DNA from: Phycisphaerae bacterium
GTDB lineage: Bacteria; Planctomycetota; Phycisphaerae; UBA1845; Fen-1342
Assembly: GCA_963675745.2 (NCBI GenBank)
Contig: CAXXWX010000001.1
Location: 64,001-128,000, forward strand
Reading direction: 5' to 3'
DNA length: 64,000 bases
A model generated the notes under the pieces. It made no database searches and was not told where the DNA came from. It worked only from the letters and a program-made list of their open reading frames with translations. Below are positions 1-40,062 of the stretch, one piece after another. The position numbers and the translations under genes were made by a program. Within the stretch, counting starts at the first letter, position 1. Every line of letters starts with the position of its first letter.

Positions 1-32
1 CTGGTGATACCGGCGCGGACGATCATCGGGGC

Positions 33-2357
33 GTGGGACTATCGCTGTTTGCGCCGAGCACGCTTACCGCACCGACACCGGCAATGACGCCGCGCGTGGC
101 GGCGGCACAGGATGTTAGCGTAAGCGACGTATACCCGTTGATTCCACCGGTGTACGACCCTCTGTTCGTGCGTGGTCCCGTTGAACCAAGTCCGCCGTCG
201 CGTGGCCCGGACTTCGGCTTCCTGGGAATAGCGGCCACCGGCTGGAATCCGCCTGATCCGGATCTGGCCGCCGGGCCCGATCACGTAGTGCTGGTCGTCA
301 ACGGCGAACTGCACGTCTATACGCACGACGGCACCAGCACATTCAGTCAGGTCATCGCCGGCGCCGGCGGTTTCTGGGGCGCGCAGGGCGCGGGCTCTTT
401 TGTTTTCGATCCAATCGCCGTCTATGACCCGCACGCGCAGCGTTTTATCGTGGCCGCCGGCGAACTCTGGAACGACTATGCCAACAGCGCCATCTGTCTG
501 GCTGTTTCGCAGACCTCCGATCCGGGTGACGGTTGGCACAAGTACCGCTGGGAAGTCACCAGCGAAGGCGGCTTCCTCGACTTTCCAAACCTGGGCGTGG
601 GGCCGGATGCGATTTACGTCGCCAACGACTTCTTCAACACGCCGACGGGGAACTTCATCTGGGTGATTCCCAAGGCCGAGACGCTCGTCGGAGACCCCGT
701 GACACCGACGCCCGTGCGGACTTCAACCGGGGCGCGATCGCTCGGCGCGGTGAAAACCTACGATCCAAACGCGCCGGCGCAGTACTTCCTTACCGCGTAC
801 AGCGGCTACAGCAATCGCCTGGCCATGGAGGCCATCACCGATCCGTTGGGCACACCGACGCTGCACAGCTACAGCCTGGTGGTTCCGTCCTTTGCCCAGC
901 CTCCAGACGCGGCCCAGCTCGGCACGTCGAACCTCGCCGACACGATCGACTTCCGCATCAAGAACGGCGTGTACCGCAACGGCTCATTGTGGGCGGTCCA
1001 TACCATCGGTGAGGATAACACGGCGCGCGTGCGCTGGTATGAGATCGTAATGAACGGCTGGCCGCTGAGTGGGCAGAGTCCGGTGGTCGTGCAGGGCGGC
1101 ACGCTCGATTACGGCACCGGCGAGCACACCTGGATGCCCGACATTCACGTTGATGATTTCGGCGACGCCCTGATCTGCTTCAGCCGCTCGTCCTCCAGTC
1201 AATACATCTCCGTGGAACGTGTCATACGCCTGGCCGGCGATCCGATCAGCACCCTGCGCGATCCCGTGCTGATGCAGGAGAGCACCGCACCGGAGACCGG
1301 TGACCGCTGGGGCGACTATTCCGGCGTGGATGAAGATGCCGACGACCCGGGCGTGTTCTGGACGCACAACGAGTATCGCGCGTCGTCCTGGCGAACCTGG
1401 GTCGGCCGGGTTGACGTCGGCGTTGATCCCAATGACTGCAACAACAACGGCGTCCCGGACAGCGTGGACATATCCACCGGCACCAGCCAGGACTGCAATG
1501 GCAACGGCGTGCCCGATGAGTGCGACCTCGACGACGGCACCAGCGGCGACTGCGACGGGAATGGTGTGCCGGATGAGTGTGACCCGGACTGCAATGCAAA
1601 CGCCGTCGTTGACGCGTGTGAGATCGCCGCGGCCGGCGGCCTGGCCGGCGCATACTATGACACGATCGATTTTTCCGGGACACCGATCGGCCGCGTTGAC
1701 GGCACCGTCAATTTCTTCTGGGGAACCAGCGGCCCGATGAGCGGCTTTGACAGCGACACGTTCAGCATTCGCTGGAGCGGTCATGTGTTGACGCCGGCCA
1801 TCGACGGCACGTATACGTTCTTCACGAACACTGACGACGGGGTCCGCCTGTGGGTTGATGACGTGCTCATCATTGACAAGTGGGTTGATCAGGGATCGAC
1901 CGAGTGGTCCGGCACGATCGAGCTCACCGGCGACGCCGCGTACGCGATTGTGATGGAATACTACGAGAACGGCGGGGATGCGCGCGCCGAGCTGCGCTGG
2001 CAACCGCCCGGTGACGCCAAGGTCATCATCCCCGAGACCAGCCTTGCGCCCGCGTTGGACTGCAACGAGAACAGCATCCCCGACGAGTGCGATATCGCCG
2101 GCGGTACCAGCACCGACAATGATGGCAACGGCATACCCGACGAGTGCGAAACGGTCGAATACGCGCTCGGCGATATGAACTGCGACGGCGCCATCAACAA
2201 CGGTGACATTGACCCATTCGTACTCGCGATCACCCAGCCAGGGCAATACCCGGTCGATTACCCGGATTGCGACATCAACAACGCCGACTGTAACCAGGAC
2301 AGCTTTGTGAATAACGGCGACATCGACGCATTTCTGGCGCTGCTGACCGGCGGTTGA
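33..2357 (+). CDS. Secreted multidomain protein: N-terminal beta-rich domain, DCNxNGVPDxCD Ca-binding repeats, PA14 domain, C-terminal dockerin-like tail; start uncertain, possibly 5'-partial
   Basis: PA14-like motifs (DTFSIRWSG, TDDGVRLWVDD, MEYYENGGDA); repeated DCNGNGVPDECD; tail GDMNCDGAINNGDIDPFV...NADCNQDSFVNNGDIDAFLALL; frame open to the window edge. Confidence 0.8.
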   Translation: MGLSLFAPSTLTAPTPAMTPRVAAAQDVSVSDVYPLIPPVYDPLFVRGPVEPSPPSRGPDFGFLGIAATGWNPPDPDLAAGPDHVVLVVNGELHVYTHDGTSTFSQVIAGAGGFWGAQGAGSFVFDPIAVYDPHAQRFIVAAGELWNDYANSAICLAVSQTSDPGDGWHKYRWEVTSEGGFLDFPNLGVGPDAIYVANDFFNTPTGNFIWVIPKAETLVGDPVTPTPVRTSTGARSLGAVKTYDPNAPAQYFLTAYSGYSNRLAMEAITDPLGTPTLHSYSLVVPSFAQPPDAAQLGTSNLADTIDFRIKNGVYRNGSLWAVHTIGEDNTARVRWYEIVMNGWPLSGQSPVVVQGGTLDYGTGEHTWMPDIHVDDFGDALICFSRSSSSQYISVERVIRLAGDPISTLRDPVLMQESTAPETGDRWGDYSGVDEDADDPGVFWTHNEYRASSWRTWVGRVDVGVDPNDCNNNGVPDSVDISTGTSQDCNGNGVPDECDLDDGTSGDCDGNGVPDECDPDCNANAVVDACEIAAAGGLAGAYYDTIDFSGTPIGRVDGTVNFFWGTSGPMSGFDSDTFSIRWSGHVLTPAIDGTYTFFTNTDDGVRLWVDDVLIIDKWVDQGSTEWSGTIELTGDAAYAIVMEYYENGGDARAELRWQPPGDAKVIIPETSLAPALDCNENSIPDECDIAGGTSTDNDGNGIPDECETVEYALGDMNCDGAINNGDIDPFVLAITQPGQYPVDYPDCDINNADCNQDSFVNNGDIDAFLALLTGG

Positions 2358-2390
2358 TATGACGCCAACAGCCACCTGAACACCACGCAA

Positions 2391-2434
2391 GCGCGCCCGG
2401 CAAACTGCTCTTTAAGAGAGCTTGCCGGGCGCGC
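2391..2434 (+). terminator. GC-rich hairpin after the PA14/dockerin gene
   Basis: 13-bp perfect stem gcgcgcccggcaa / ttgccgggcgcgc; no clear U-tract. Confidence 0.45.
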
Positions 2435-2566
2435 CGGCGTGGGATGACCGCATCCTGTCGGCCGTCCCCCCATCAACCCAGCATGTTCGTGATCTTCGCA
2501 TGCGCTGATCGCCGGTTAGGCGCCCAACATGCGCTGTATGATCAGGTGTGTTGAATAAGGGAGCAG

Positions 2567-4108
2567 ATGATGACGCTCAGTCGCAAGCTGATCCTGAGGA
2601 CCGTGGCCCTGGTGCTCGGTTTGGGCCTCCTCGGAACAACATCGCTCTGGGGGTTGCTGGGCTTGCGCGCCAACGTTGACCAGGCGCGCGAGGAGTATCG
2701 CGAACTTCGTCTCATCCAGGGGGTGGACCGACGTGCCGCGGCGGCTCGCGGATTGCTCGCCGCTGAAACGCCGCAGCGGCAAGACGTCGTCGCTGAACTT
2801 CGGACGGCCCTGCTCCCGCTTGAGGAATTTATGGCGTTCCAGCAGACGCAGGGCGACCGAATCCCGGCACATCAGCTACGCGAGAATGACGCCGCTGACG
2901 CGGCCCGCCGACGACTGGTCGACGTACTCGCGGAGATTCAGGCCGAGTCGGTCGGCGAGATGATCGACGCCCAAACCGCCGCACGGGCCGCGCGCGTCCT
3001 TGGCGATGTTGCCAATGACCTGGCGGGTCTGGCTGACGCGATGGATTACACAATCGCCGCGGCGCAGCAGGACGCCACGACGAAACTGCGCACAGCCACC
3101 ATTCTGATGATCTCCGTCACGGCTGGTATCGTGGTGGCGGCGGCGGCCATCGCGTTCGCGCAGTATCGCAGCATCATGCGCCCGCTCCGGACTCTGCGCC
3201 ACGGCGTGCGGCGGATTGCACGGGGGAGTTTCGACGAACGCCTGGAGGTCTTTGCCGATCTGGAATTCAGGGAGCTGGCCGACGACTTTAACCGGATGGC
3301 GGTGCGACTGGACGAGCTTTACCGCGATCTCGATGAGAAGGTCCGCAGCAAGAGCAAGGAGCTGGTGCGCTCCGAGCGTCTGGCGAGCGTCGGCTTCCTC
3401 GCCGCGGGCGTGGCACACGAGATAAACAACCCACTGAACATCATCTCCGGCCACGCCGAACTGTCGCTGAAGCACTTGCGGCAGACCGGCACCACCGATG
3501 AACAAAGTCGCGACTCGGCCGACAGTCTCGAGGTCATCCGGGAGGAGGCCTTCAGGTGTAAGGAAATAGTCCAGAAGCTGCTGTCGCTGGCACAGGCCGG
3601 TCCGGACAGGCGTGAGAGCGTCTCGCTGGCGCGTGTGGTTGACGAAGTAGTCTCAATGGTGCGGGGGCTCAGCCAATACCGCGATCGGCGAGTCCATGTT
3701 GATTGGGACAAAACCGCCAATCCGGCCGTTGTGGCCAACGAGGCGGAGTTGAAGCAGGTGCTGCTGAACTTGACGATCAACGCGCTCGAGGCCGTGGAAC
3801 CCGGACGGGGCGAGATCAACATCCAGGGACGCAACGACGACGGCTGGGTCGCGCTGTCCGTTCGTGACAACGGACGCGGCATGACGCCCGATGTCCTTGA
3901 AAACGTATTCGAGCCGTTCTTCACCACACGGCGTGGCGCCGAGCGGCACGGCGTCGGATTGGGGCTATCGATCTCGCATGCGATCATCGAAGCGCATGGC
4001 GGACGGATCACGGCAGCGAGCACCGGCCCCGGCGGCGGAAGCGAGTTCACACTGTTCCTTCCAAGCGCCGGTGCCGACCGCGGTCCAAGTGAGCCAGGGA
4101 ATGCCTAG
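2567..4108 (+). CDS. Sensor histidine kinase (2 TM, periplasmic helical sensor, HAMP, HisKA, HATPase_c)
   Basis: H-box AHEINNPL, N-box LKQVLLNLTINA, G1 DNGRGM, F-box FEPFFTT, G2 GVGLGLSIS; SD-like gggag upstream. Confidence 0.95.
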   Translation: MMTLSRKLILRTVALVLGLGLLGTTSLWGLLGLRANVDQAREEYRELRLIQGVDRRAAAARGLLAAETPQRQDVVAELRTALLPLEEFMAFQQTQGDRIPAHQLRENDAADAARRRLVDVLAEIQAESVGEMIDAQTAARAARVLGDVANDLAGLADAMDYTIAAAQQDATTKLRTATILMISVTAGIVVAAAAIAFAQYRSIMRPLRTLRHGVRRIARGSFDERLEVFADLEFRELADDFNRMAVRLDELYRDLDEKVRSKSKELVRSERLASVGFLAAGVAHEINNPLNIISGHAELSLKHLRQTGTTDEQSRDSADSLEVIREEAFRCKEIVQKLLSLAQAGPDRRESVSLARVVDEVVSMVRGLSQYRDRRVHVDWDKTANPAVVANEAELKQVLLNLTINALEAVEPGRGEINIQGRNDDGWVALSVRDNGRGMTPDVLENVFEPFFTTRRGAERHGVGLGLSISHAIIEAHGGRITAASTGPGGGSEFTLFLPSAGADRGPSEPGNA

Positions 4109-4697
4109 AGCAAACCGGCACATGCATGTTCTCGTCGTCGAAGATGAACCACGCCTGCGCGATGTTCTCACACGCGCAATACCTGACATGGGCTTCAGTG
4201 TGTGTGGCGTGGGGCGTGCCTGCGAAGCGTTGGACACGCTGGACGAACAAAGGGTCGACATTGCGATTCTCGATCTCAATCTTCCTGACATGGACGGCCT
4301 GGAGCTCTTCCAGCTTATTCACGAGCGGTGGCCACAGACGCAGGTCGTGATCCTGACCGGCCACGGCAATCTCGACGCCGCCAGAAAAGCGATCAGGTTG
4401 GATGTGGTGGACTTCTTGTCCAAGCCGGCGTCGCTCGGCGAGCTTGAAGTTGCTCTCGACCGTGCCCGCCGTCGCAGACCGGACACCGCCCCGCCGGTGC
4501 TCGCGGAGGAGGCTCCCGCGGAGCAGCCACCTGCCGCCGCCGCGCGCACCATGCAGGACGTCGAGCGCGAGCATATCCTCGAAGTCCTGGCTCGCAACTC
4601 CGGCAACCGGGCCGCCACGGCTGCCGAGCTCGGCATCAGCGTTCGCACGCTGTACTACCGACTGTCCGAGTACCAGAGATCAGGCCACCTGCGCTAG
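4101..4697 (+). CDS. Response regulator, REC + Fis-type HTH, no sigma54 AAA+ domain (RegA/PrrA-like architecture)
   Basis: VLVVEDE, DLNLPDMDG, TGHG, FLSKP; C-terminal GNRAATAAELGISVRTLYYRL; ATG overlaps the kinase stop. Confidence 0.9.
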   Translation: MPRANRHMHVLVVEDEPRLRDVLTRAIPDMGFSVCGVGRACEALDTLDEQRVDIAILDLNLPDMDGLELFQLIHERWPQTQVVILTGHGNLDAARKAIRLDVVDFLSKPASLGELEVALDRARRRRPDTAPPVLAEEAPAEQPPAAAARTMQDVEREHILEVLARNSGNRAATAAELGISVRTLYYRLSEYQRSGHLR

Positions 4698-4915
4698 TCG
4701 ATACTCGCGCGCGGCCGCGGATACGCGTCGCCACCCACCGCCGCGACGCAAGCGCCAGCACCGGCGGAACCACGGGCGAGCCTGCAAATCCTGCACGTTT
4801 TGTGAAATCGGCGGGCGCTCTACCTACGATACAGGTGAAATCGGAACACGCACCGCAAGTCAACTGCCGGGCGCGCCGCCAAGCTTGCCCGGGAGGGTCG
4901 CGAGGAGAGGCACTC

Positions 4916-6754
4916 ATGAGGCCGATGATACTGCTGGCGTTTGCATCCGTGACCATCTGGACCGCCACCCTGCCGCAGGGCGCATTGTCCGGCTCCGCTC
5001 TTGATGACTCGCCGCACCAGTCGGTTGCGCGGCTGCCGTCAGTACGGGCGGCGCTGGCTCACGCGACGATCGACGAATATCTGGGGCCCGAGACATGTGT
5101 CGCGTGCCACCAGGCCGAAGCGGAAGATGTCTTCCATTCGGTGCACTACCAGCAGAGCGGCCCGACGCCCAATGTGCCCAACATTGCGGGAACCGCGGGC
5201 AAGACCGATCGCGGCTTCAACACGTACTGTGGCACGCCGGTCACCTCCAGCAGAGCGACATGTGCATCATGCCACGTCAGCTATGGCAGATACACGTCAG
5301 CGACGCTCTCCCTCGAACAACTCCACAACATCGACTGCCTGATGTGCCATCAGGACGAGTACAAACGCGTGCCGGCCGGCCCATTTGAGACGGTCGCGGT
5401 CATCGGAAGCGATGGCCAGCCAAGCACCATTCAGGTGCCGGTCGAGGATGAGACCGGCTTTCAGTACATGCCGGACGAAGCCAACATGAGCATTTCGATC
5501 CTGGAGGCGGCGCGAACGGTCCACCCGACCACGCGCGCATCCTGCCTGAGATGCCATGCCGGCGCTTCGGGCAGCGATGGCGGCAAGCGCGGCGATCTCT
5601 CATTCGTTACGGTGGCTCCGCCGGTCTCATCGGACATCCACATGAGCCCGCAAGGGGCGGATCTGACCTGCCAGAACTGTCACCAGTTCCAGGAGCATCG
5701 CGCGCGCGGGCGCGGACTCGACTTGCGGCCAAACGATCGCGCCGAACGGTTTACGTGCGCGTCTTGTCACACCGATCAGCCGCACGGCGATTACGATCCG
5801 CAAGACGGCGCAAGACGCGATACGCACGCGATGCGCGTGGCCTGCCAGTCCTGCCACATTCCCAGCTTCGCGAAGGATGTGAGCACGGAAATGGCCCGCG
5901 ACTGGACAAGCCCGTTCTATTCACCGGCGGCGTGCAGCGGCCAAGGCGGATGGAAGCCAGAGGAAACGCGCCAAAGCGACGTAACGCCAACCTACCGATG
6001 GTTCGACGGGACCAGCGAGGTGTACGTTCTCGGCCAGGTACCCGTGCAGAACGACGCCGGGGAGTATGCCCTGGGCGTGCCGCTCGGCGGTGTGGAAACG
6101 GCCGGCGCGAAGCTCTACCCGATGAAGGAGCACCGGTCCGTATCCGCGCGTCTGGTCTCGCTCGCCGCCGACTTCGACAATGACGGAGGCGTCGGTTTTG
6201 GCGACTACGCGTCACTGGAGGCGTGCATGACCGGCCCGGATCAATTGCTCACCGGAGGTTGCGAACCGTCGGATCTGGACCTCACCGGCGATGTCGATCT
6301 GGCGGACTTTGCCGCGTTTCAACGCTGCTTCGCGGATGGCTGCGGCACGCTGGGCGAGTTGATTCCACATTCCACGTTCGCGTTCTTCACGACCGGGGAT
6401 TTCAACCACGCCGTCGAGGTGGGCATGCAGAACTCTGGAATGCTCGGACAATGGGAGTTGGTTGACGTACACACCTTCCAGACTGTCAATCACGGCGTCG
6501 AGAACGAGGAACAGGCCTTGGATTGCGGCTCATGCCACGCGAGCCTGGGCGGCGGCCCGGTCAGGATGGACCTTCAGGGAGAGCTGGGATACGAGCTGAA
6601 GGGCCCGGCTTCTCAAATCTGCTTCCAGTGCCATGGCGCCGAGGAACAGAAACCATTCAAGACCGTGCACGATATCCACGTAAAGGACAAGCGCTACGAT
6701 TGCTCCTGGTGTCACACGTTCTCGCGACCGGATCGCGGCTTAACGCCTCCGTAG
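4916..6754 (+). CDS. Decaheme c-type cytochrome, octaheme tetrathionate reductase (OTR)-like core plus 2 extra hemes, with internal dockerin-like insertion
   Basis: 10 CxxCH (CVACH, CASCH, CLMCH, CLRCH, CQNCH, CASCH, CQSCH, CGSCH, CFQCH, CSWCH); OTR-type blocks KRGDL, DIHM, VACQSCHIP.FAK, P.Y.WFDG, AKLYPMKEH, NHGV...ALDCGSCH; signal peptide; SD gaggag before ATG 4916. Confidence 0.88.
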   Translation: MRPMILLAFASVTIWTATLPQGALSGSALDDSPHQSVARLPSVRAALAHATIDEYLGPETCVACHQAEAEDVFHSVHYQQSGPTPNVPNIAGTAGKTDRGFNTYCGTPVTSSRATCASCHVSYGRYTSATLSLEQLHNIDCLMCHQDEYKRVPAGPFETVAVIGSDGQPSTIQVPVEDETGFQYMPDEANMSISILEAARTVHPTTRASCLRCHAGASGSDGGKRGDLSFVTVAPPVSSDIHMSPQGADLTCQNCHQFQEHRARGRGLDLRPNDRAERFTCASCHTDQPHGDYDPQDGARRDTHAMRVACQSCHIPSFAKDVSTEMARDWTSPFYSPAACSGQGGWKPEETRQSDVTPTYRWFDGTSEVYVLGQVPVQNDAGEYALGVPLGGVETAGAKLYPMKEHRSVSARLVSLAADFDNDGGVGFGDYASLEACMTGPDQLLTGGCEPSDLDLTGDVDLADFAAFQRCFADGCGTLGELIPHSTFAFFTTGDFNHAVEVGMQNSGMLGQWELVDVHTFQTVNHGVENEEQALDCGSCHASLGGGPVRMDLQGELGYELKGPASQICFQCHGAEEQKPFKTVHDIHVKDKRYDCSWCHTFSRPDRGLTPP

Positions 6755-6886
6755 GCACTCGGCGACTGATTCGCCGGCGCGGCGGAACTCGGGCGTGTGA
6801 GACCATGGGGTCTCATTGACTGGACGTGCTGTCCGGAACGGAAAGAAGCAGCGCATCCGCCGACCCGCCGCACGTGCCCGGTCTCT

Positions 6887-6967
6887 GTGGCGACCGACGC
6901 CCCGGTCGGACGTGGCCGCCATGATCGGGTCCATGGCGACAACGTCCGACGCGGGAATCGGGCGCCA
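6887..6967. repeat. Long imperfect hairpin / inverted REP-like doublet between the convergent cytochrome genes
   Basis: gtcggacgt/acgtccgac and cgccatg/catggcg arms; starts with GTGG; outer tggcg.ccga / tcgg.cgcca. Confidence 0.6.
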
Positions 6968-6986
6968 GTCAAATGCGGGGAATAGG

Positions 6987-9554
6987 TTAACCGCCGCTCA
7001 AGAGAGCCACGAACGGATCGATGTCGGCGTTGTTCACGACGTCATCACCGTTCAGGTCGGCGTTCATTATGTTGCAGTCCGGGAACGCCGCCGCATAGGC
7101 GGCCGGGTCGGTCAACGCCTGCACGAACGGGTCGATGTCGGCGTTGTTCACAATTCCATCACAGTTCATATCGCCGGGGCTTTCCGACGAGGTGAGCGCG
7201 ATTGATGCCGAGCGCATGACCTCCGGCGGGCACTTGCCGTTGTCGTTCCACAGGTCATACATTTCCTGGCCCAGCGTGTTGGTGGTGTTCTCGTCACGCA
7301 GAAACTCGATGAACTCCTTGCTGGTGCTCTGGTAATACAGGGTCACATCGGCCGACGTGGCGCCCGCGGGAATGCTGTAGTACGTGTCATCCCAGTATTG
7401 CCCGTCCGGATAGCTGTAGCCGACGTGGGAGCCGCCGAAGTTGGCGTAGGCGGCATTCGTAAAGCCGCGCGGCGGAATCCGGTTGTCCTTGAACACAGCG
7501 TTATTCAGCGCGAAGTGGAACGACGGCCCCGGCTCAACACCTACCAGCGGCGCGGTGACTTCGTCAAGCCCGGGTTCAATCTCGTAGATCTTGGCTTCGG
7601 CATCGTGGCCCAGCTCGCCCGTCTCCAGATCGTAAGCAGCCGACTCGGAGATCAGCGTCATGCCGGCGTCATAGAACTTTACGTTGATCCAGATACGCCG
7701 GCCTTCCGGATAGCCGGTGGGCAACTTGTGACCGGTTTCGTTGGTCACGGTGACTTGCAGGTCGTCACCGTCCTGTTCCAGATCCAACTGCGCCGCGTTC
7801 TGAAGCATGTACCTGGCGCGCAGAATGCCGGCCTGCAAGGCCGCATCGTTGACTTCTCCTGGATAGAGACCGTTTATCAACCCTGGGTACCAGGTGCTGC
7901 CGCCGGTCATGTCGTGAAGCGGCAAGTCGGTGCGCGTGGGCGGCGTGCCGAAATTGCAGCCTTCGCCGGTGACGTCGTGCATGTGGCAATCCTGGCAGGT
8001 AGCGACGTAATCCTTGTTACCACCGAACTGCGGGGCATAGACGCCTTCGGGCGAGTTATATTCGCTGTTGAACCACTCGCTATAAGTACGCTCGACCGGA
8101 GCGATGGTGTTGGCGGAAAAGTCGGTCGCCGTCGTGTCGAAGGCGTTCGGCACGTAGTGGCCGAGTCCATCCTTCTCGAACGCCGGGTTGCTGACGTCAT
8201 GACAGGTGCCGCACAAGGCCGCTTCGCGGTGGAATGGAGAGACCAGGATGGGGTGCCCGCTGGTGGCATCGACGAAAGGCCCCCGCCTGGCGCCGGTGGG
8301 ATCGATCGTGCCCATGCCGGTGCCGAAGGTGCTGGCCGGGAAGCTGAGTGCTGCGAGGATTGCCGCGTCTTCCGGCGGGTTCGCGCCCGGATCGTAAATC
8401 GGATCAACGAGGCGATGGCAATAGTCACAGGCCACGCCGCTCTCGTCGGTCACCAGCATCTGGCTGCCATCAGTCGGCACCGAGCGGCCCTGCAACCAGC
8501 CGCGCGGCAGGTGGCATCGCAGACAGATATCGCCAGAGTCGGGCGCATCCTGGTTGGCGATGGTCATGTTGGCCATGAAGATCAGGTCACGCGACGCCTG
8601 AGACATCATGCTGCCCTGCCAGTTGTAGTAGGGCTCGACGGCTTCATCGTAGCCGCCGTGGCAGGGCGAGCAGGCCTCGGGCGGGTTCAGAATGCCCGCC
8701 TCCAGCGGCTGTGTGCCCGGCATGTCGAAGTCTCGCAGCGTGGTGGGGGCGAGTCCGCCGGGGGGTGCCTCGACGTTGAAGGCCGCGTCGCTATCATCCT
8801 GACCCTGGTTGAATGCGTTGTCAGTCGCCACCACGCGGAATATCGCCTCGGTGGTGGGCCGGTTGGCCACAAACCAGGTGTAGCTGCCGGTATTGGGCAA
8901 CCCGAAAGCCAATGCGCGGAAGGTCGCGCCGTTGTCGTCCGACGCATAGAGGTCGATCGCGGCGATGCCGCTGGCGTCGCCGGCGGTCCACTGCACCGTT
9001 GTGCCGGCGTTACCCACATACGTCTCGCCGCCGTTCGGGACAATCACCGCGACGGTCGGCGGCGTGGTATCGCTGCCCGTGCTGGGCACGAGGTGGGTCT
9101 GAATCTCGGCAATATCGACGTTGGCCGTGCTGCTCACATTGGCCGGCGTCAGACCCGGGAAAGTCGGCGTATTCGCGTACGTGGTGACGTCGGTCGCCTC
9201 GATGAGCGTACTGAACCCATCACCATCGGGGTCCTCGTTCTCAATCGACTGAACGGCCTGACGCCGCCCGTTGGGGTTACTGGAGAAATTCGGCAACACC
9301 TCCTCCAGGCGTGCCCCGTACGGGTTGCGTGTACCGCCGCCGGTGAAGTCGTAGTGGCAGACGCCGCAGTGGTCCGGTTGGCTTGGTACCGTCCCGATTG
9401 TCGTCGTCTCCGCGTCCGGGTAGACGGCAAAGAACGCATCACGAATGTTGCTGCGGGCCTCCGCGCTGGGAATGCCCACGGCGACACAAAGCACAACCGG
9501 TACCAGAAGCCAGAGCGTGGTATTCGATACGCGAGTGTGGGTGTGAGTGTACAT
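6987..9554 (-). CDS. Hexaheme c-type cytochrome: N-terminal monoheme domain, Ig-like domain, c554/c552-like multiheme core, C-terminal dockerin-like tail
   Basis: 6 CxxCH (CGVCH, CSPCH, CLRCH, CDYCH, CGTCH, CQDCH); signal peptide ending AEA; GHKLPTGYPEGRR motif; tail GDMNCDGIVNNADIDPFV; SD ggagg before ATG 9554. Confidence 0.88.
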   Translation of the reverse strand: MYTHTHTRVSNTTLWLLVPVVLCVAVGIPSAEARSNIRDAFFAVYPDAETTTIGTVPSQPDHCGVCHYDFTGGGTRNPYGARLEEVLPNFSSNPNGRRQAVQSIENEDPDGDGFSTLIEATDVTTYANTPTFPGLTPANVSSTANVDIAEIQTHLVPSTGSDTTPPTVAVIVPNGGETYVGNAGTTVQWTAGDASGIAAIDLYASDDNGATFRALAFGLPNTGSYTWFVANRPTTEAIFRVVATDNAFNQGQDDSDAAFNVEAPPGGLAPTTLRDFDMPGTQPLEAGILNPPEACSPCHGGYDEAVEPYYNWQGSMMSQASRDLIFMANMTIANQDAPDSGDICLRCHLPRGWLQGRSVPTDGSQMLVTDESGVACDYCHRLVDPIYDPGANPPEDAAILAALSFPASTFGTGMGTIDPTGARRGPFVDATSGHPILVSPFHREAALCGTCHDVSNPAFEKDGLGHYVPNAFDTTATDFSANTIAPVERTYSEWFNSEYNSPEGVYAPQFGGNKDYVATCQDCHMHDVTGEGCNFGTPPTRTDLPLHDMTGGSTWYPGLINGLYPGEVNDAALQAGILRARYMLQNAAQLDLEQDGDDLQVTVTNETGHKLPTGYPEGRRIWINVKFYDAGMTLISESAAYDLETGELGHDAEAKIYEIEPGLDEVTAPLVGVEPGPSFHFALNNAVFKDNRIPPRGFTNAAYANFGGSHVGYSYPDGQYWDDTYYSIPAGATSADVTLYYQSTSKEFIEFLRDENTTNTLGQEMYDLWNDNGKCPPEVMRSASIALTSSESPGDMNCDGIVNNADIDPFVQALTDPAAYAAAFPDCNIMNADLNGDDVVNNADIDPFVALLSGG

Positions 9555-9738
9555 GCAGTCCGCCTCCAGATGTGTTGCCGCGCCTCCGTGACCAGAATCA
9601 CTGCGCAAGCGTTCCGTGCCCTGAATCCACGGTCTGCACATAGCTGGCCACGGTCGTGAAGCCCCCGCACCGTGGTAAAGCAGACACCACAATTGACATG
9701 GTGTCATGCCTCACGGACAACTGGATATGCCTGTAGGG

Positions 9739-9767
9739 ATATTACCGGGTACCGGCCACGGCGTCAA
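9739..9767 (-). promoter_or_regulatory. Sigma70-type promoter for the hexaheme cytochrome
   Basis: Minus strand TTGACG-17 bp-TAATAT. Confidence 0.7.
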
Positions 9768-9834
9768 GCAATTCGGAGTGTCGGGGTCGGATATAGGCCG
9801 TACACGCCCATTACTCGCGGCATGCCCTCGGGGA

Positions 9835-12258: not shown

Positions 12259-12361
12259 CTTCTGTCATGCCTCCAGCGCGTGGCACACGCCGCGGTGTGC
12301 CCGCGTGGTGCGACTGCACTCGGACCGTTGACGCGTCCGCCATTCCGTGCCCATCACGTGC

Positions 12362-29273: not shown

Positions 29274-29330
29274 GGCACCTGGCATTTGGGGGAGTGCAGC
29301 GGCCAACGCTCCGCCGGGACGTGAATCTGC

Positions 29331-30272: not shown

Positions 30273-31859
<1,587 letters not shown>

Positions 31860-32080
31860 AAGAATCTGCGATCTCGACCCGTTTGGGTCGCTATCTATCC
31901 TGTAAATCGGAATCGACCAAACGGCCTCGCGCTGTGTGCGAATCCGTCTGGGTGTTCACCGTGCAAACCAGGCGTAACAACGCCCGAATGCGGCGAACAT
32001 CGGTTGCGTTTCGAGACAGCGCGGCCATCACAGCGGCCGCCGCGCCGCTCGTCACATTCTCACAGTTTCATCCACTGTTC

Positions 32081-32148
32081 ACTTGTCATAGATCTACCGG
32101 CCCTGTCAGGACGGTCCCGCATGTTAGCAGCTTCGCGCCCGCCTGCAA
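32081..32148 (-). promoter_or_regulatory. rRNA promoter and boxA-like element
   Basis: Minus strand TTGCAG-16 bp-TAACAT with GC-rich discriminator; boxA-like GATCTATGACAA near 32083-32094. Confidence 0.75.
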
Positions 32149-32414
32149 GCCCCCGGGCAGCGAAAACAGAGATTTTCCACGAAAAGCCCGAACGCGTGCG
32201 GCAAAATGCACCAAAATCAACTCCGCGTGACCCTCGATGGGACACTTGCCGATCGTGTATATTGAATCAAGGAATACCCCAGGGCACCAGCACGGAACGC
32301 GCCGGCGGCCGAGACGCATCGTCATGCCGCCTGCCCAGGAGCGACCCAAGACGCACCGAAGACACGCTGGGGGCTTGCCGATCAAGCCACTTACTGCAAC
32401 GCAGGAGGCATAAC

Positions 32415-34589
32415 ATGATCCATCAACGGAGCGTAACCTACATCGCCACATCCCTTGCTATCGCCGTATTTATCGGAACTTTAGGCGGCTGCCCAGGCTT
32501 TGTGTTCCCACCGCCGGGCACGCAGGACGACCCCCTAAACGGGTCGCCGGGCACCCCCGCCAAACTCATCGCTTTTGACTCCCCTGAGGCACTGCTTGAC
32601 TACTTCAAGACCGAGGGTCTGCGCCGAATCGAGCCCGACCCCAACCCGGTCGGGTTTTTCGATCTCTTCGGCATAGCCGCCCCGACCGCGGCCTCTCCCG
32701 GCGGGACCTTGGATGACGTGGCCAGTTTCGATCAGGCCGCGCCCGAAGATTCACGAGGCGGTGACGGCGGCGAGAATGCCGACGATTACTCCACGACAAA
32801 CCTGCAAGTCGCCGGCGTCGACGAAGCCGACATTTTCAAATCCGACGGCACTAACTTCTACTTCGCCAGCGGAAACCTGATCCGCATTCTCCAGGCCACT
32901 CCACTGGCGGACATGGCCGAATTGTCCACCATCGAAGTCGGCCACCAGATCAACGAAATGTACTTCTACCAGAACTTCCTGATCGTGATGGCGGTCCGCT
33001 ACGAGGAGTACCAGGGCGACGGCGTGGCCAGCCCCGGCATGCCTGAGCCCGCCATGGATGTCGGCTACGGCGGCTCCTATTACTACGGCGGCGTGCCGCG
33101 ATACATCATCGCGCAGATCGACATCAGCGATCCGGCCAACCCAGCGCTTGTTCATGAACTCGAGGTCGACGGCCTGATTCAGAATTCGCGTCTCACCGAC
33201 GGCCGGCTTGTGGTCATCACGAGCGTTTCGCCGAACATGCCCTACGACGGGCCGGCCATTCAAGCGCTGGAGCTGGATGACCTGATGCCAAACGTGCGCA
33301 CCGCGGCCGGCGCGGTGCCAATGGTCCACTGGAGTGGCTGGTACCATCCCGCCGAACACGACGGCTATCAAACCACCGCGGTCGTGACCATCGATGCCGG
33401 CAATGTCGAATCGATCATCGGAGCACTCGCCATCGTCGCGGACGCCGGCGTGGTCTACATGACGACGGACGCGCTTTACGTAACCGACGATGACTACAGC
33501 GATGACTATGGCTACCGGCCGATCACCGCGATTCACAAGATCACATTCGACGAAGCCGGCGTGCCTCAGTATGCCGCAAGCGGCAGCGTGCCGGGCCGCG
33601 TGCTGAACCAGTTCTCGCTGGACGAATACGAGGATCATCTGCGCCTGGCGACGCACGTTGAGGACTTCAGCTTCTTCTTCGAACCGTGGTTCCCTGACGT
33701 GATACTGTTCTCGGATGTGGCGGTGAGCGTTGGCAACGCTTCTCTGCGTGAGCAGGCCAACGAGCCGTCCGAGCCCTACAACGCGGTTTGGGTGCTGGGC
33801 CAGGATGGCGGCGCGCTGGAAATCACCGGCTCCGTCGAGAACATCGCGCCGGGCGAAGATATCTACGCCGCCCGCTTCCTGGGTGATCACGGATTCCTGG
33901 TCACGTTTGAGCGGATGGACCCGCTGTTCGTACTGAACCTCACCGATCCGGCCGACCCGCAACTGCTGGGCGAGCTCGAGATCCCCGGGTTCAGTGAATA
34001 CCTGCACCCCTATGGCGAGAACCACCTCATCGGCGTCGGCAGATCAACCGAGATCTCGGAGTGGGGCGGCACCATCGAGACGGGTGTCCAGCTCTCACTG
34101 TTCGATGTGAGCGACTGGGCCAATCCCACCGCCGTACAGCAGATCACCATCGGCGAGCAGGGCTCGTTCAGCGACGTCAGCAACACGCACAAGGCCTTCA
34201 CATTCCGCGAGGCGGACGGCCTGCTGGCGCTGCCGGCGGTTGTCACGATCCAGCGCGGCATGGAGTGGGGCTATCCGGTGTACGGTTACGAAGAGTCCGT
34301 GCTGCTGTTCCAGGTATCGACCGAAACGGGCTTCACGCAGCTCGGCCGGTTGGACGTCGCATATGAAGACGACGCGCCGCAGGATGACTGGTGGTATCAG
34401 AACTCCTGGCGCCGGGCCGCGTTCATCGGCGACACGCTGTATGCGGTCGCCCCCAGCGGCGTGCGCGGCGCGCCGCTTGACGACCTGTCAGCGGATTCGT
34501 CCGTGGGCTTCCCCCTCGTGACGACCGACTACTACTACGGGTACATGGACACGGTCGACGACGATGTTGACAGAGAAATCGACGAATAG
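32415..34589 (+). CDS. Beta-propeller-domain lipoprotein (Beta_propel / YkwD-unrelated secreted family)
   Basis: Lipobox LGG-C; YSTTNLQVAGVDEADIFKSDG, GRVLNQFSLDEY, EDIYAARF, DPLFV, GELEIPGFSEYLHP; SD aggagg before ATG 32415. Confidence 0.88.
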   Translation: MIHQRSVTYIATSLAIAVFIGTLGGCPGFVFPPPGTQDDPLNGSPGTPAKLIAFDSPEALLDYFKTEGLRRIEPDPNPVGFFDLFGIAAPTAASPGGTLDDVASFDQAAPEDSRGGDGGENADDYSTTNLQVAGVDEADIFKSDGTNFYFASGNLIRILQATPLADMAELSTIEVGHQINEMYFYQNFLIVMAVRYEEYQGDGVASPGMPEPAMDVGYGGSYYYGGVPRYIIAQIDISDPANPALVHELEVDGLIQNSRLTDGRLVVITSVSPNMPYDGPAIQALELDDLMPNVRTAAGAVPMVHWSGWYHPAEHDGYQTTAVVTIDAGNVESIIGALAIVADAGVVYMTTDALYVTDDDYSDDYGYRPITAIHKITFDEAGVPQYAASGSVPGRVLNQFSLDEYEDHLRLATHVEDFSFFFEPWFPDVILFSDVAVSVGNASLREQANEPSEPYNAVWVLGQDGGALEITGSVENIAPGEDIYAARFLGDHGFLVTFERMDPLFVLNLTDPADPQLLGELEIPGFSEYLHPYGENHLIGVGRSTEISEWGGTIETGVQLSLFDVSDWANPTAVQQITIGEQGSFSDVSNTHKAFTFREADGLLALPAVVTIQRGMEWGYPVYGYEESVLLFQVSTETGFTQLGRLDVAYEDDAPQDDWWYQNSWRRAAFIGDTLYAVAPSGVRGAPLDDLSADSSVGFPLVTTDYYYGYMDTVDDDVDREIDE

Positions 34590-34659
34590 CGGCAACGACA
34601 GGAACGACCACAGGTAGGGCATCATCTCCGAAGTGCATTCGGCGCCCGGCCGCACAGCG

Positions 34660-36900
34660 CTAGTCGGCTGGGACCGGTGATGGCATCGGCTCAGTCTTGG
34701 GCCGGCCGGGCGACGGATGCATGGAAAAGACCAGCAGGACACCCACAACGGTCAGGCCCAGTGCCGCCGCCGTCCAGATCGGCGACACAGCGCCATCTTC
34801 CGCGCCGATCACACCGGCGTCTGCGAGCGCGGTCTCCAGGGCCGGCACTTCGCTCAGTAGAATCAGCATCGCATTGTGCATCATGTGAGCGATGACCGCC
34901 GGCCAGATCGATCCGCCGCGCAACACCAGGAGTCCGAACAGCAGCCCCAGCGCTCCGGTGACGATCAGTCGATATACGCTGTGGTGAAACATGGCGAATG
35001 CAAACGCGGTGATAAGCAGTGCCGCCCATTTGCCGAGCGACCCGCGCAGGCCTTGCAGCACATACCCTCTGAAGAACAGCTCTTCCACGAAACCGGGCGT
35101 GAACGCCAGCGCGACAAGCACCAGCCAGAGCGGCGCGGCGCTGATCATCTGCTGAATCTGGGCGTGGCCGACTTCGGCCTCGGGCGGTATCGGCATCCAG
35201 CCGGCCTGAAACGAGAGCCAGGCGGCCGTCAACAGCCATGTCGAACACCCGAAACACAGCGCGGCCAGCAGCCCCGCGACGCGCGGCTTGTGAAGGGCGA
35301 ACGCCGTCAGCGGCCGCACACGCGTGTAGACCGCGGCCATGTATGGGAACAGCCCCAGCAACCCTGTCAGCAACAGCACCAGTCCGGAAAGGTACCGCAC
35401 CGGCTGCGCCAGCAGCTCGACGCCCAGCAGCGTCTGGCTGATGAAGAAGTGCAGCAGATAGGCCACCGCGAGTACAAGGAATGCCATCGCCGCCGTCGGT
35501 ACCGCGCGGGCCTTGAAGAACCGTCGCACGAACAGGGATTTGATCGACCCGCTGTCAGCGAACAGCACGGCTTCCTGCCCGAAGAGCTTGGCGGCGACCG
35601 CCACCGCCGCGCCCGCGTAGATCGACGACGACATCGTCACCCACAAGATGTTCAGCGCGTCGATGCGCCCCATGAACAGATCGCGCGTGAGCAGCACGAT
35701 GTTCGCCACCGGAATCACCAGCAAGGGGCCTTCGAGCCGTGAGCCGGGCAGGGTCCCCACCACTGCCGGAATCATCGCCGCCACCATCACCGGCATCACG
35801 TAGTTCTGGGCTTCCTTAAAGCTGCGGGCAAAGCTGCACACCGCGAGCAGCGCGGCGCTGAACATCACCGCCAGCGGGATGAGCACTATGAGCACCCAGG
35901 GCATGGCGGCCAGTGGGAAAACCACTTCGCCGCCTTTGGCCAGAATGTCACCCAACCCGCCCAGGTAAACGGTCCCCGCCACGGAGAGCAGGTTCAGTGT
36001 CGCGCTCAGCATCCCGATCAACGTCACCACGATGAACTTGCCCGCGATCAGGTCCACGGTCGGCACCGGGGCGACCATCAGCGTCTCAAGCGTGCCGCGC
36101 TCGCGCTCGCCGGCGGTCAGATCGATGGCCGGATAGATCGCTCCCGAGATGGTCATCACGATCAGAATGAACGGCACGATCTGACCCAGGATCGACCCGC
36201 CGACGCGTTCGGGCGTCGCCACCAGGTCCACCTTGATATCCAGCGGCGAGAGCACGGACGGGTCGAGCCCGTGCTGCGTCAGACGGACCTCAACCATCTT
36301 TGCCTGGAGCCGCGAGAGAATCCCCTGCAAGCCGGGGGCGGCGTAGCGATAGCTGCGGTACTCCGTCTGGTCATAGACGAGCGTCACGTGCGACTGCGGG
36401 CCCGAATCAAATGTCGGCAGCGGCCCGTCAACCAGAATGCCGACATGGGCGGCGCCGCTCTTGACTGTCTCACGCACATTCTTGGTGATCAGAATCCGGA
36501 AGTCCGGCGGCCGGCTGCGCGCGTCGGCGTCGGCGGCTTCATCATTGCTGGCGATGACGTCGGGTGGCGGGGCCGCCTCGGCGGTCGGGTTCTCGCGCAT
36601 CTCCTGTCGCAGCTCGGGCAAGTCCTCCGCCGCGACATCCACGCCGGCCGGATGACGCGTCAGGTCCGCGTCGATGCGCGCCCGCAGCCAATGCGCGACC
36701 TGCTCATCGGCGACGGCGATGATGTACACCTCTTGCTCCATGCTGGTCGATTGCAGCTCGAACGCCTGGAGCGACCCCAGCATGAGGGCCGGGTAGAGGA
36801 TGATCGGCACAATCACCATGGCCATCACGGTGCGCCGATCACGCAGCGTGTCGCGCAGCTCTTTGCGCCAGATCGTGTTAATCCGCGAGAATCGAGTCAT
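34660..36900 (-). CDS. ABC-2 permease (NatB-like) fused to a CPBP/Abi intramembrane metalloprotease
   Basis: KELRDTLRDRRT, AGERERGTLETL; CPBP motifs EELFFRG, FAMFH, AHMMHN. Confidence 0.9.
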   Translation of the reverse strand: MTRFSRINTIWRKELRDTLRDRRTVMAMVIVPIILYPALMLGSLQAFELQSTSMEQEVYIIAVADEQVAHWLRARIDADLTRHPAGVDVAAEDLPELRQEMRENPTAEAAPPPDVIASNDEAADADARSRPPDFRILITKNVRETVKSGAAHVGILVDGPLPTFDSGPQSHVTLVYDQTEYRSYRYAAPGLQGILSRLQAKMVEVRLTQHGLDPSVLSPLDIKVDLVATPERVGGSILGQIVPFILIVMTISGAIYPAIDLTAGERERGTLETLMVAPVPTVDLIAGKFIVVTLIGMLSATLNLLSVAGTVYLGGLGDILAKGGEVVFPLAAMPWVLIVLIPLAVMFSAALLAVCSFARSFKEAQNYVMPVMVAAMIPAVVGTLPGSRLEGPLLVIPVANIVLLTRDLFMGRIDALNILWVTMSSSIYAGAAVAVAAKLFGQEAVLFADSGSIKSLFVRRFFKARAVPTAAMAFLVLAVAYLLHFFISQTLLGVELLAQPVRYLSGLVLLLTGLLGLFPYMAAVYTRVRPLTAFALHKPRVAGLLAALCFGCSTWLLTAAWLSFQAGWMPIPPEAEVGHAQIQQMISAAPLWLVLVALAFTPGFVEELFFRGYVLQGLRGSLGKWAALLITAFAFAMFHHSVYRLIVTGALGLLFGLLVLRGGSIWPAVIAHMMHNAMLILLSEVPALETALADAGVIGAEDGAVSPIWTAAALGLTVVGVLLVFSMHPSPGRPKTEPMPSPVPAD

Positions 36901-37630
36901 CCGCTGCCACCAGGCTCAGAAAGACCTCGCTGAGCCGCTGCACGCCGGTCTGTTGGCGCAGGGCCTCCAGATCACTGTCGGCGATGAGTTTACCGTTATG
37001 TATCAGCCCGATGCGCCGGCAGAGGGTTTCGATCTCATCCAGCGCGTGCGTTGACAGAACGACCGTTTTGCCCGCCGATGCCTGGCTGTGGATGAATCCC
37101 AGGATCAGGCGGTTGCTGAGCACGTCGAGGCCGAGCGTCGGCTCGTCCATGATCAGTACCGGCGGGTCGGCGATCAGCGCGCGGGCGATGCTGGTACGCT
37201 GTTTCTGCCCGGTCGACAGCGCTCCGCAGCGCAGACGCATGAAGGGCGGCATATCCAGCCACTCCACGAGCTCCTGGATACGCTTTTGAGCCTGCGCGCG
37301 ATCCAGCCCGTACAGAGCCGCGAAGTATTCGAGCACCTCCAGCGGTGTCAGCCGCGCGTAGAGCTCGGTGCGGGCCGTGAGGTAGCCGATGCTGCGTTTC
37401 ACGTCCTCCGGGCGGTCGGTCACGTCAACGTCATTGATGTATACGCGTCCGCTGGTCGGGCGCAGGAGCCCGCCGATCATGCGCAGCGTGGTGGTCTTGC
37501 CGGCCCCGTTGGGCCCGAGCAGACCATAGATTTCGCCCGGTGACGCCTCGAACGTGATGTGATCGACAGCGGTTTTCTCGGTCCCGTCCGGATTGGGAAA
37601 CCGCTTGGTTAGCTGCTCGACACGGATCAT
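36878..37630 (-). CDS. ABC transporter ATP-binding protein (NatA-like)
   Basis: Walker A GPNGAGKT, LSTGQKQR, Walker B IMDEPT, H-loop STH. Confidence 0.93.
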   Translation of the reverse strand: MIRVEQLTKRFPNPDGTEKTAVDHITFEASPGEIYGLLGPNGAGKTTTLRMIGGLLRPTSGRVYINDVDVTDRPEDVKRSIGYLTARTELYARLTPLEVLEYFAALYGLDRAQAQKRIQELVEWLDMPPFMRLRCGALSTGQKQRTSIARALIADPPVLIMDEPTLGLDVLSNRLILGFIHSQASAGKTVVLSTHALDEIETLCRRIGLIHNGKLIADSDLEALRQQTGVQRLSEVFLSLVAADDSILAD

Positions 37631-37952
37631 AAAGTTCCAATAATCCACGGCATACAGGGGCCGGTGTTCATATCTATCGTCGATCGGCGGCGCATTCCTG
37701 ACACGATTCGTCAGTTGAATTCGCCGGCGAGGCCAACAGAGTGTATAGCATTTTCGCCTCGGCGTAATGTTCGCTGATTCCCTTTCCGGCGCAGCAACGC
37801 CACGCGGACAGCACTGGACACGGCAACCGCCAAGTCGCTACCTTGTGGATACTGGGGGCGGCAATGCTCTACCGGGCCGCCGCCGCCGCGTGCATATCGG
37901 TGTCGGAGTGGTGGGAAGCGTATGGTGCGGTAGCAACAAGGGAGGGTCGGCG

Positions 37953-40062
37953 ATGAGAACACTGGCACTGACCGCGGCAATGCTCATCTGCGCCACGGCG
38001 GCGCGGGCGGATACGGTTCTGGTGGAACCGGTCGGGCAGATTGGTGGGGTGTGCAATGACGTGGCCGTCGTCGGTGATCTGGCCTACATGGGTATCGGCC
38101 CCCGCCTGGTGATTCTGGATGTGTCCGACCGGTCCAATCCGACCTTCCTGGGCCAGTCGGAGGTGCTGCCGGATATTGTCTTCGGCGTAACGGTCTCGGG
38201 CGACTATGCTTACGTGGCGGCTTCCTACGCTGGTCTTCAGGTGATCAACATCTCGGATTCCGCCGCCCCGTTTCAGGTAGGGGCGTACGACACGAGCGCG
38301 GCTGCCTGCGACGTCGTGGTCGTGGGCGACTACGCCTACGTGGCTGATCACTACCGCGGTCTGAAAGTGATCAACATCTCGAATCCGGCCGCCCCATTTC
38401 TGGCCGGCGCTTACGACACGAGCGGGCAGGCCGTCGACGTAGTGGTCTCGGGTAGCCATGCCTACGTGGCTGATTATCACGGCGGTCTTCAGGTGATCAA
38501 CATCTCAAACCCGACTGCCCCGGTTTTGGAGGGTGCATGGGATGACGCAGACGGATCCGCCTCCGGCGTCGCGGTCGCCGGTGACTACGCCTATGTCGCG
38601 TACGGCATTGCCGGTCTTCAGGTGATCAACATCTCAAACCCGGCCACGCCTGTGTGGGTGGGCGCCTGCGATACCAGCGAGTCCGCCAGCGATGTCGCGA
38701 TCGTGGACAATCACGCATTCGTGGCGAGTAACTACTCTGGTCTTCAGGTTGTGGACATCTCAGATCCGGCCGCCCCCGTCCGGGACGGTGGATGGGACAC
38801 AAGTGGGCGTTCAGACGCCGTGGTGGTCTTGGGCGACTACGCCTACGTGGCAGACTACATGGCCGGTTTTCAGATCATCAACATCTCGGTCCCAGCTGCC
38901 CCCGTACAGGAGGGCGCGTACGGCACGTTCCACGTCGGCGCCGTTGCGGTCCTGGGCACGCACGTGCACGTGGCGGGAGGGTATGTCGGTCTTCAGCTCG
39001 TCAACGTCGCGAATCCTGCTGCTCCGTTCGAGGAGGGCAGACTCGACACGAGCGGGAGTGCCTCGGGCCTTGCGGTCTTGGGTGACTACGCCTACGTGGC
39101 GGACTGGGAGGGGGGTCTGCAGGTGATCAATACCGCGAACCCGTCCGCTCCGTTTCGTGCGGGCGGATGCAACATGAGCGGGCGTGCCAGGGGCGTTGCG
39201 GTCGTGGGCGACTACGCCTACGTGGCGGCCTGGGATGCCGGTCTTCAGGTGATCAACATCTCGAACCCGGTCGCCCCTGTCCCGGAAGGCGCGCACGACA
39301 CAAGCGGGTTGGCCAACGCGGTGGCGGTCTCGGGCGATTACGCGTACGTAGCGGATCGCGATGGCGGTCTTCAAGTGATCAACATCTCCAATCCTTCCAG
39401 CCCCACGCTGGCAGGTGCATGCGCCACAAGCGGGTATGCCTACGACGTGGCAGTCTTGGGTGACTACGCCTACGTAACGTGCGGCAACGCCGGTCTTCAG
39501 GTAATCGACATTTCGACCCCCGCCGCTCCGGTCTTGGCCGGCACGTACGAGACGACAGATCCCGCTGCGGGTATTGTCATCTCTGGTGACTGTGCTTACT
39601 TGGGAGTCGGCTCCACCGGTCTTCAGGTGATCAACATCTCGAACCCGGCTGCCCCGCTCCTGGCAGGCGGGCACGACACGAGTGTCGGCAGGCGGCGCCG
39701 TGCGGCGGTGTTGGGCGACCACGCCTACGTCGGCGATGGGGAGGGTGGCTTGGTCATCCTGCACGTCACACCCGACTGCAACGAGAACGGCGTTTCCGAT
39801 AGCGACGACATCGCCGGCGGCGCGAGTACCGACCTTAACGCCAACGGCATCCCGGACGAGTGCGAACGGCTGCTCGGCGACATGAACTGTGACGGGTTGG
39901 GCCAACAACGGCGACATCGACGCGTTTGTCTTCGCCATGTCGTATCCCGAGCAATATCCCGACGAATACCCGGATTGCGACATCATGAACGGCGACATCA
40001 ACGGCGACGGGTGGGTCAATAACGGCGATATCGACGCGTTTGTGGAGTTGCTCGTGCAGTGA
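37953..40062 (+). CDS. Secreted LVIVD-repeat protein (14 repeats) with C-terminal dockerin-like tail; one +1 frameshift at ~39900
   Basis: 14 ~42-aa units GDYAYVA...GLQVINISNP; removing one G at ~39900 restores GDMNCDGLANNGDIDAFV...NGDINGDGWVNNGDIDAFVELL-stop. Confidence 0.85.

Follow-up and report, generated by a model that had tools for sequence, protein, structure and literature searches.

Dockerins are understood almost solely through their cohesin partners. The closest described relatives of the element reported here are the type I dockerins of clostridial cellulosomes (PF00404; CaDoc0917, 6kg9/6kgc; C. thermocellum Xyn10B, 1ohz/2ccl; 4fl4), modules of about 60 residues with a duplicated calcium loop and helix and near-identical half-repeats, usually sited at the C-terminus of secreted enzymes. 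For freshwater Phycisphaerae, the accessible part of the paper putting forward the 'planctosome' hypothesis assumes a cohesin-dockerin pairing (Andrei et al. 2019, PMC6461901). This was the only relevant item found in the literature on dockerins in Phycisphaerae, and no paper was found under the term 'GC-type dockerin', the name given by the NCBIfam model NF041540 (GC-type dockerin domain-anchored protein) to a dockerin-type C-terminal anchor on varied passengers. Functional analogues are found in the PEP-CTERM/exosortase and type IX secretion system (T9SS) C-terminal domains, in which one short C-terminal tag is carried by many unrelated exported proteins. Here we describe a module, hereafter the tail, that is shared by three passenger proteins in a 64,000-nucleotide stretch of DNA from a Phycisphaerae bacterium (GenBank assembly GCA_963675745.2, contig CAXXWX010000001.1, positions 64,001 to 128,000 of the forward strand; the window) and recurs throughout the genome. 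The dockerin fold itself is known; judged by its sequence and modelled structure, the tail is a lineage-specific, diverged, Cys-stapled variant of the type I fold, and one that is poorly catalogued. The whole-genome census, the distribution across the order and phylum, the uncoupling from cohesin, the selection test, the exchange with PEP-CTERM and the probable indel in the third window copy are new to this analysis.

The consensus of the tail, designated class A, is G-D-[LM]-N-C-D-G-x-[VI]-N-N-G-D-I-D-[AP]-F-V-x-A-[LIV]-[TS]-x-P-x-x-Y-x-x-x-[YF]-P-x-C-D-x-x-x-[AG]-D-x-N-x-D-G-x-[VI]-N-N-G-D-I-D-[AP]-F-V-x-L-L. Column counts over the 161 copies in the genome give two canonical 12-residue calcium loops, each followed by a helix, with nearly identical halves, and D-x-N-x-D-G-x-[VI]-N-N-G-D is kept in both loops in more than 90% of copies; both loops are predicted to bind Ca2+. 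The Cys pair that the initial annotation called invariant is present in 145 of the 148 gap-free copies of this genome. Among 257 domains from the best 150 matches of a global protein search, which include some of this genome's own proteins, 188 have both Cys, 33 lack both and 14 have a single one. Because the two residues are kept or lost together, they fit a predicted disulfide between one Cys in loop 1 and one just before loop 2 (Cys5-Cys34).

The likeness to dockerins, proposed in the initial annotation from the NN(G/A)D that both half-repeats carry, is supported at the level of both profile and fold. When 140 tails of this genome are combined in a profile, it matches solved type I dockerins along its own full length (6kg9, 6kgc and 4fl4, E 8e-5 to 1e-4), the match at E 8e-5 spanning positions 3-63. 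The AlphaFold2 model of the tail (predicted local distance difference test score 96.6) has the double calcium-loop and helix layout of type I dockerins, with helices at 15-26 and 53-63, and its VIA-align superposition on the clostridial dockerin CaDoc0917 gives Z 8.5 and a root-mean-square deviation of 1.9 Å over 61 of 66 residues. A Foldseek search of the PDB gives 30 rows at E<=10, every one of them from a cohesin-dockerin entry, the top-ranked being type I dockerin chains, with template modelling (TM) scores of 0.56-0.71 and, for so small a domain, E>=0.18.

The tail differs from type I dockerins in its signature (N-C-D-G...N-N-G-D-I-D-[AP]-F-V), its co-varying Cys pair and its low score with existing models. 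Pfam Dockerin_1 (PF00404) gives 12.3, 16.8 and 12.9 bits for window tails 1, 2 and 3, short of its cut-off of 22.9; over the whole genome it finds 13 places above the cut-off, none of them class A, and eight class-A tails below it. At the thresholds used for passenger families (E<=1e-4 or 1e-5, see below), PF00404 matches one of the 160 tail proteins, and that match is to a separate class-B module. With NF041540 (cut-off 29), tail 2 reaches 21 bits, tails 1 and 3 give no match, and the best place in the whole genome scores 19.1 bits. Because these standard models miss the tail, a set of exported proteins is overlooked in the annotation of these metagenome-assembled genomes (MAGs), for which a dedicated hidden Markov model (HMM) would be a remedy.

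An HMM built from the three window tails and run on 76,230 six-frame open reading frames (ORFs) at E<=1e-3 identifies 160 ORFs with 161 domains in the 5.2 Mb genome, with scores of up to 125 bits and a set that remains unchanged over three iterations. These ORFs, about 5% of a crude set of 3233 non-overlapping ORFs, are spread over 25 of the 28 contigs in runs of up to eight genes, and 151 of the 161 domains finish no more than 7 residues before the stop, so that the initial proposal of a modular, genome-wide C-terminal tag holds. Placement is not strictly terminal: in two FGE-sulfatase-like proteins (G000:C1:248804-250048 and C15:110779-112215) the module is N-terminal and follows the signal peptide directly, and in some proteins it is internal, ahead of YD/RHS-like repeats.

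The passengers are unrelated to one another, as had been suggested from the window alone. Pfam families, accepted at E<=1e-4 for the first 70 proteins and 1e-5 for the other 90, were assigned to 92 of the 160. They include 20 peptidases (seven S8, eight C25, M28, M12B, M14, M6 and trypsin-like), 17 beta-helix/PMP/NosD proteins, 10 FGE-sulfatase-like proteins, eight glycosidase-related proteins and many propellers (FG-GAP, BNR/sortilin, LVIVD, Kelch and WD40); unlike the enzymes of clostridial cellulosomes, tail passengers are mostly proteases and adhesin-like proteins and not cellulases. Most have a signal-peptide-like N-terminus. When the first 12 starts are all considered, one is found in 108 of 131 tail ORFs versus 766 of 1838 controls; at the first start alone the numbers are 52 of 131 versus 238 of 1838, and a looser version gives 117 of 131 versus 1168 of 1838. 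Pairwise comparison of 142 tails (10,011 pairs) gives a mean identity of 65%, with 44% of the identical residues encoded by different codons. As synonymous sites are thus scrambled among copies, the conservation of the tail is due to purifying selection; recent gene conversion, considered as its source, is ruled out by these synonymous differences.

The tail is confined to one order of Phycisphaerae and, within it, class A to two or three families. Counts per genome are based on the best 150 scored candidates, so that 150 stands for at least 150. The window's family is represented by 18 other genomes, of which 17 have the tail at E<=1e-5, with 53 to at least 150 matches in twelve genomes outside the genus and 34-89 in three genomes of the genus; both genomes of a second family have it too, and a third family of the same order shows it weakly. 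Ten genomes sampled from the order's eight other families gave no match, nor did any of 120 genomes drawn from elsewhere in the phylum at E<=1e-10. A search of 1.84 billion representative proteins gives 12,482 matches at E<=1e-3, of which 6,234 reach E<=1e-10. The closest copies belong to records titled Phycisphaerae, Phycisphaerales or Planctomycetota MAGs. Of the best 150 global matches, 74 carry two to five copies of the module, 125 end with it and 27 begin with it. One such protein from another metagenome (P0001, 222 residues) consists of a signal-peptide-like start and three tandem modules with nothing else, and other multi-module proteins hold up to five copies with TSP3-like spacers between them; proteins of this kind could be cross-linkers.

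Cohesin is the expected partner of a dockerin. The best that Pfam cohesin models give in this genome is a partial match of 25 bits. A lineage cohesin profile built from six cohesin-like modules matches solved cohesins at E 1.3e-6 and identifies exactly one cohesin module in this genome (189.7 bits), located in a 789-residue PMP-repeat protein that also ends in the tail (G000:C13:85611-87977). Over 31 genomes, the lineage profile detects cohesin at E<=0.001 in nine of 17 tail-rich and five of 14 tail-poor genomes, and the Pfam cohesin model in eight of 17 and six of 14, respectively. Four of the tail-poor genomes belong to the window's own family. Of the eight tail-rich genomes without cohesin by the lineage profile at this threshold, three hold at least 150 tails and are 95-98% complete, whereas one genome with 14 cohesins has no tails. 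The co-distributed, same-genome cohesin partners of a cohesin-dockerin system are thus not seen here, and the initial suspicion that the tail is no cohesin ligand is strengthened: tail and cohesin are uncoupled, and the tail is probably not a classical cohesin ligand. The initial annotation would have taken the lack of a co-occurring partner as evidence against its reading; cohesin is not co-distributed with the tail, and no other partner was found among the neighbouring genes and PEP-CTERM ORFs considered (see below). Nor does the cohesin profile match the sequences that separate tandem modules in proteins from other genomes. The predicted complex of the cohesin module, the tail and two Ca scores 0.02 (mark 0.32) and counts neither for nor against binding. 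A 4887-residue ORF (G000:C13:160684-175344, minus strand) with a weak partial Pfam cohesin match of 17.6 bits was considered as a scaffoldin and rejected, since it has no internal repeats and has an RHS/YD-type C-terminal region.

The genome encodes a second dockerin-like family, class B, with 65 domains in 62 ORFs, 49 of these domains being C-terminal, and the motif GDxDGDGDVDxxDF...C..GP...GC...DxDGDVDxxDFAxFQ, including a Cys pair of its own. Class A and class B are homologous two-loop modules that are mostly C-terminal, and an iterated class-B profile also recovers 149 class-A ORFs; unlike class A, class B is recognized by Pfam Dockerin_1 (13 over the cut-off) and is order-wide, occurring in 29 of the 31 genomes. 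It is likewise uncoupled from cohesin.

Other sorting signals were also searched for. PEP-CTERM (PF07589) has 45 matches in the genome, in other, smaller ORFs (e.g., C24:16746-16808 and C3:16805-16864), and the tail itself has no hydrophobic segment of the kind that marks that signal; it differs from the PEP-CTERM and T9SS domains in lacking a transmembrane helix or beta-sandwich, in not being strictly terminal and in its dockerin-like fold with calcium loops. Five of 44 PEP-CTERM ORFs have a paralogue of 42-56% identity with a class-A tail in place of PEP-CTERM, so the same passenger occurs with either type of anchor. PEP-CTERM ORFs lie close to tail genes only slightly more often than controls do (10 of 44 versus 11.4% within 2 kb, p 0.024); as sockets for the tail they were rejected, being heterogeneous with a largest family of two. 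The T9SS C-terminal domain (PF18962, Por_Secre_tail) has no match at E<=0.01 in this genome, which is 91% complete. Among 198 non-tail genes neighbouring tail genes, no recurring receptor candidate emerged. The neighbours include one recurrent family of seven large proteins with TPR-like ends, which looks regulatory when judged by eye from those ends, and small groups.

On balance we lean, without great confidence, to the view that the tail is a cohesin-independent docking or anchoring module for a common receptor. In this scheme, the module, fused to some 160 Sec-exported proteins and mostly at their extreme C-terminus, would fold after export with Ca2+ and an oxidized Cys pair and would dock its passenger to a single shared receptor, either at the cell surface or in the extracellular matrix, that is not a recognizable cohesin; the exported 'degradome' would thereby be kept with the cell. 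Docking or anchoring to one ligand is suggested because of the fold, the constraint on nearly all exposed positions, the exported passengers and the exchange with PEP-CTERM, and an anchor-like place for the tail is also suggested by the 'choice-of-anchor B' match of the LVIVD passenger. Several points weigh against it. No receptor was found among the neighbouring genes and cohesins searched, so that docking is argued from fold and conservation, and Ca2+ binding, like the disulfide, is a prediction. Nine of the 17 tail-rich genomes do have cohesin modules, and this genome's own cohesin sits on a tail-bearing protein, making a role for cohesin in some genomes possible. The signal-peptide test is a crude, home-made heuristic by which 42% of controls are positive, gene starts likewise rest on heuristics, and 68 of the 160 passengers have no Pfam family at the thresholds used. 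The relatives compared are kin and not independent samples, and about 11 of the 160 tail copies elsewhere in the genome lie in short or broken frames, some of which may share the indel-error cause described below for tail 3. If a receptor other than cohesin exists, it would explain how uncultured Phycisphaerae keep proteases, glycosidases and adhesins at their surface, and receptor and tail together would offer protein display a new, compact plug and socket that Ca can switch. A bolder and rather doubtful extension is that about one protein in 25 of the cell is drawn into a surface coat of enzymes and adhesins, either by a new kind of receptor (protein or glycan) or by modules that self-associate through Ca bridges; if true, a diderm planctomycete would have arrived at the cellulosome principle a second time and independently.

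A classical cohesin-dockerin assembly, in which the tail would plug into the PMP-repeat, cohesin and tail protein on C13, a protein that could chain with itself and carry others, appears quite improbable. The cohesin homologue is genuine, as both the score of the module and the match of its profile to solved cohesins indicate, its protein ends in a tail, and the near-identical half-repeats resemble those of dual-binding dockerins. Tail-bearing M12B and M14 peptidases are also in keeping with the planctosome model, which, in the accessible part of its description, shares with this system the Phycisphaerae host, a non-cellulolytic setting, dockerin-tagged peptidases of these two families and an adaptor-like protein with both cohesin and dockerin (PMC6461901). 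However, a single cohesin faces 160 tails and some 62 further class-B modules in this genome, eight of the 17 tail-rich genomes lack cohesin at E<=0.001, five tail-poor genomes have cohesins, and class B, given its wider distribution, is an equally good or better candidate cohesin ligand; the Cys-stapled variant and its copy number do not feature in that part of the planctosome description. Since the phyletic patterns of tail and cohesin do not match, cohesin is unlikely as the general receptor.

No more probable is an export or sorting signal read by an outer-membrane translocon or a processing enzyme and perhaps cleaved, as with T9SS domains and PEP-CTERM/exosortase, although the strong C-terminal bias, the paralogues that exchange the tail for PEP-CTERM and the absence of PF18962 matches from the genome are in its favour. 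C25, S8 and beta-helix families carry T9SS tails in Bacteroidota, and all three are among the passengers here. The secretion-tag reading entertained in the initial annotation nevertheless fares poorly: a strictly terminal export signal is disfavoured because the module also occurs behind the signal peptide, internally and, elsewhere, in tandem, and it is a folded calcium-loop domain with neither a hydrophobic helix nor a basic tail, in a genome that already has a PEP-CTERM system and in which no dedicated machinery was identified. It is also unlikely, though less so, that the tail has no dedicated protein partner and acts as a Ca2+-dependent domain for folding, stability or solubility, sticks to polysaccharide or matrix (like a carbohydrate-binding module, or Ca-bridged), or self-associates. 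Such a role would be consistent with class A and class B modules vastly outnumbering cohesins across the order, with proteins such as P0001 that hold a signal peptide and three modules, and with the neighbour genes yielding no recurring receptor. Against this, most surface positions are near-invariant among the 142 paralogues despite scrambled synonymous sites, a constraint stronger than stability domains usually require and one that fits one specific ligand, and the module is restricted to one order.

The features of the window that bear on the tail are collected in Table 1. Tails 1 and 2 are as first described, each followed by a stop. With respect to the passengers, the PA14 protein (E 5.8e-24, residues 536-669 of the 33-2354 translation, approximately nt 1638-2039) and the LVIVD propeller (E 1.1e-139, 12 stretches) are confirmed by Pfam, while the assignment of the third as a cytochrome stands only in part, as it has six CXXCH motifs and all of its Pfam cytochrome matches are sub-threshold. 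The LVIVD passenger also matches TIGR04312 (choice-of-anchor B, E 3.7e-30). All three have signal-peptide-like N-termini; that of the PA14 protein, the last in a run of eight consecutive tail-bearing genes, lies upstream of the window and has a lipobox-like end.

Table 1. Tail copies, their genes and related modules in the window.
Feature	Position	Strand	Remarks
PA14-domain protein gene, 3' part	3..2357	+	From the ORF listing; start upstream of window, whole frame G000:C1:62479-66354
Cys/Asp-rich linker (CNxN-G-I-P-D-E-C repeats, TSP3/Dicty_CTDC-like)	2055..2168	+	Directly 5' of tail 1
Tail 1, class-A dockerin-like module (two Ca-loop/helix repeats, Cys pair)	2169..2354	+	GDMNCDGAINNGDIDPFVLAITQPGQYPVDYPDCDINNADCNQDSFVNNGDIDAFLALLTGG; stop 2355-2357; 99.5 bits, tail HMM
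Class-B module, internal in multihaem cytochrome gene (ORF 4802-6754)	6170-6331	+	DFDNDGGVGFGDY...CMTGP...GCEPSDLDLTGDVDLADFAAFQRCF
Six-CXXCH protein gene (multihaem-like)	6987..9707	-	Probable start ATG 9554, then signal-peptide-like stretch
Tail 2, class-A dockerin-like module, 62 residues	6990..7175	-	Stop 6987-6989; 96.6 bits, tail HMM
LVIVD beta-propeller frame	37767..39896	+	Probable start ATG 37953 (MRTLALTAAMLICATAARA/D)
Tail 3, remainder	39889..40062	+	Other frame than LVIVD as assembled; stop 40060-40062; 101 bits, tail HMM

The sequence of tail 3 is present at 39876-40062 as initially annotated, but as assembled it is not one frame in the window. The LVIVD frame holds a linker (39774-39875) and closes with the initial seven tail residues, GDMNCDG (39876-39896), while the remaining 55 residues (WANNGDIDAFVF...ELLVQ, to 40059) are read in another frame, separated by one extra base in the G run at 39894-39896. 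A 305-base contig from two public runs (X1/X2) of one sample matches 39619-39927 with no substitutions and, relative to the window, has single-base deletions at 39894 and 39696 and a two-base deletion at 39685, with modest support (depth 5.4 and 2.7). Applying these differences yields a single open frame with an intact tail 3, in which the aberrant 'SVGRRRRAAV' becomes a regular LVIVD repeat; for this reason, the break is probably an assembly indel and not a pseudogene. That the public-run contigs depart from the window solely in small deletions, with no substitutions, suggests homopolymer-type indel errors in this assembly.

Repeats of the form C-N-x-N-G-[IV]-P-D-E-C (TSP3/Dicty_CTDC-like), which are probably Ca-binding, make up the linkers in front of tails 1 and 3 and also occur at 1425-1650. 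Genome-wide, 20 of 138 tail ORFs have this Cys/Asp-rich motif in the 100 residues ahead of the tail, versus 11 of 3396 other long ORFs.

The cytochrome ORF at 4802-6754 contains 10 CXXCH motifs and matches the octahaem family TIGR04315 at E 2e-69, below the cut-off; the class-B insertion inside this cytochrome is unusual. A histidine kinase and response-regulator pair (2567-4697, plus strand) lies between tail genes 1 and 2, and an ABC ATPase and a large permease with a CPBP-like end (34660-37648, minus strand) are located just upstream of the LVIVD gene. Elsewhere in the genome, three near-identical truncated tail fragments (G000:C15:32313-32576, C17:82995-83225 and C17:87947-88228) end in a common junction (…NGDGQVNTFDTLSGVKGRPA…) that may be a repeated insertion or rearrangement breakpoint, and truncated fragments adjoin an intact YD/RHS-like gene with an internal tail (C17:85126-86865).

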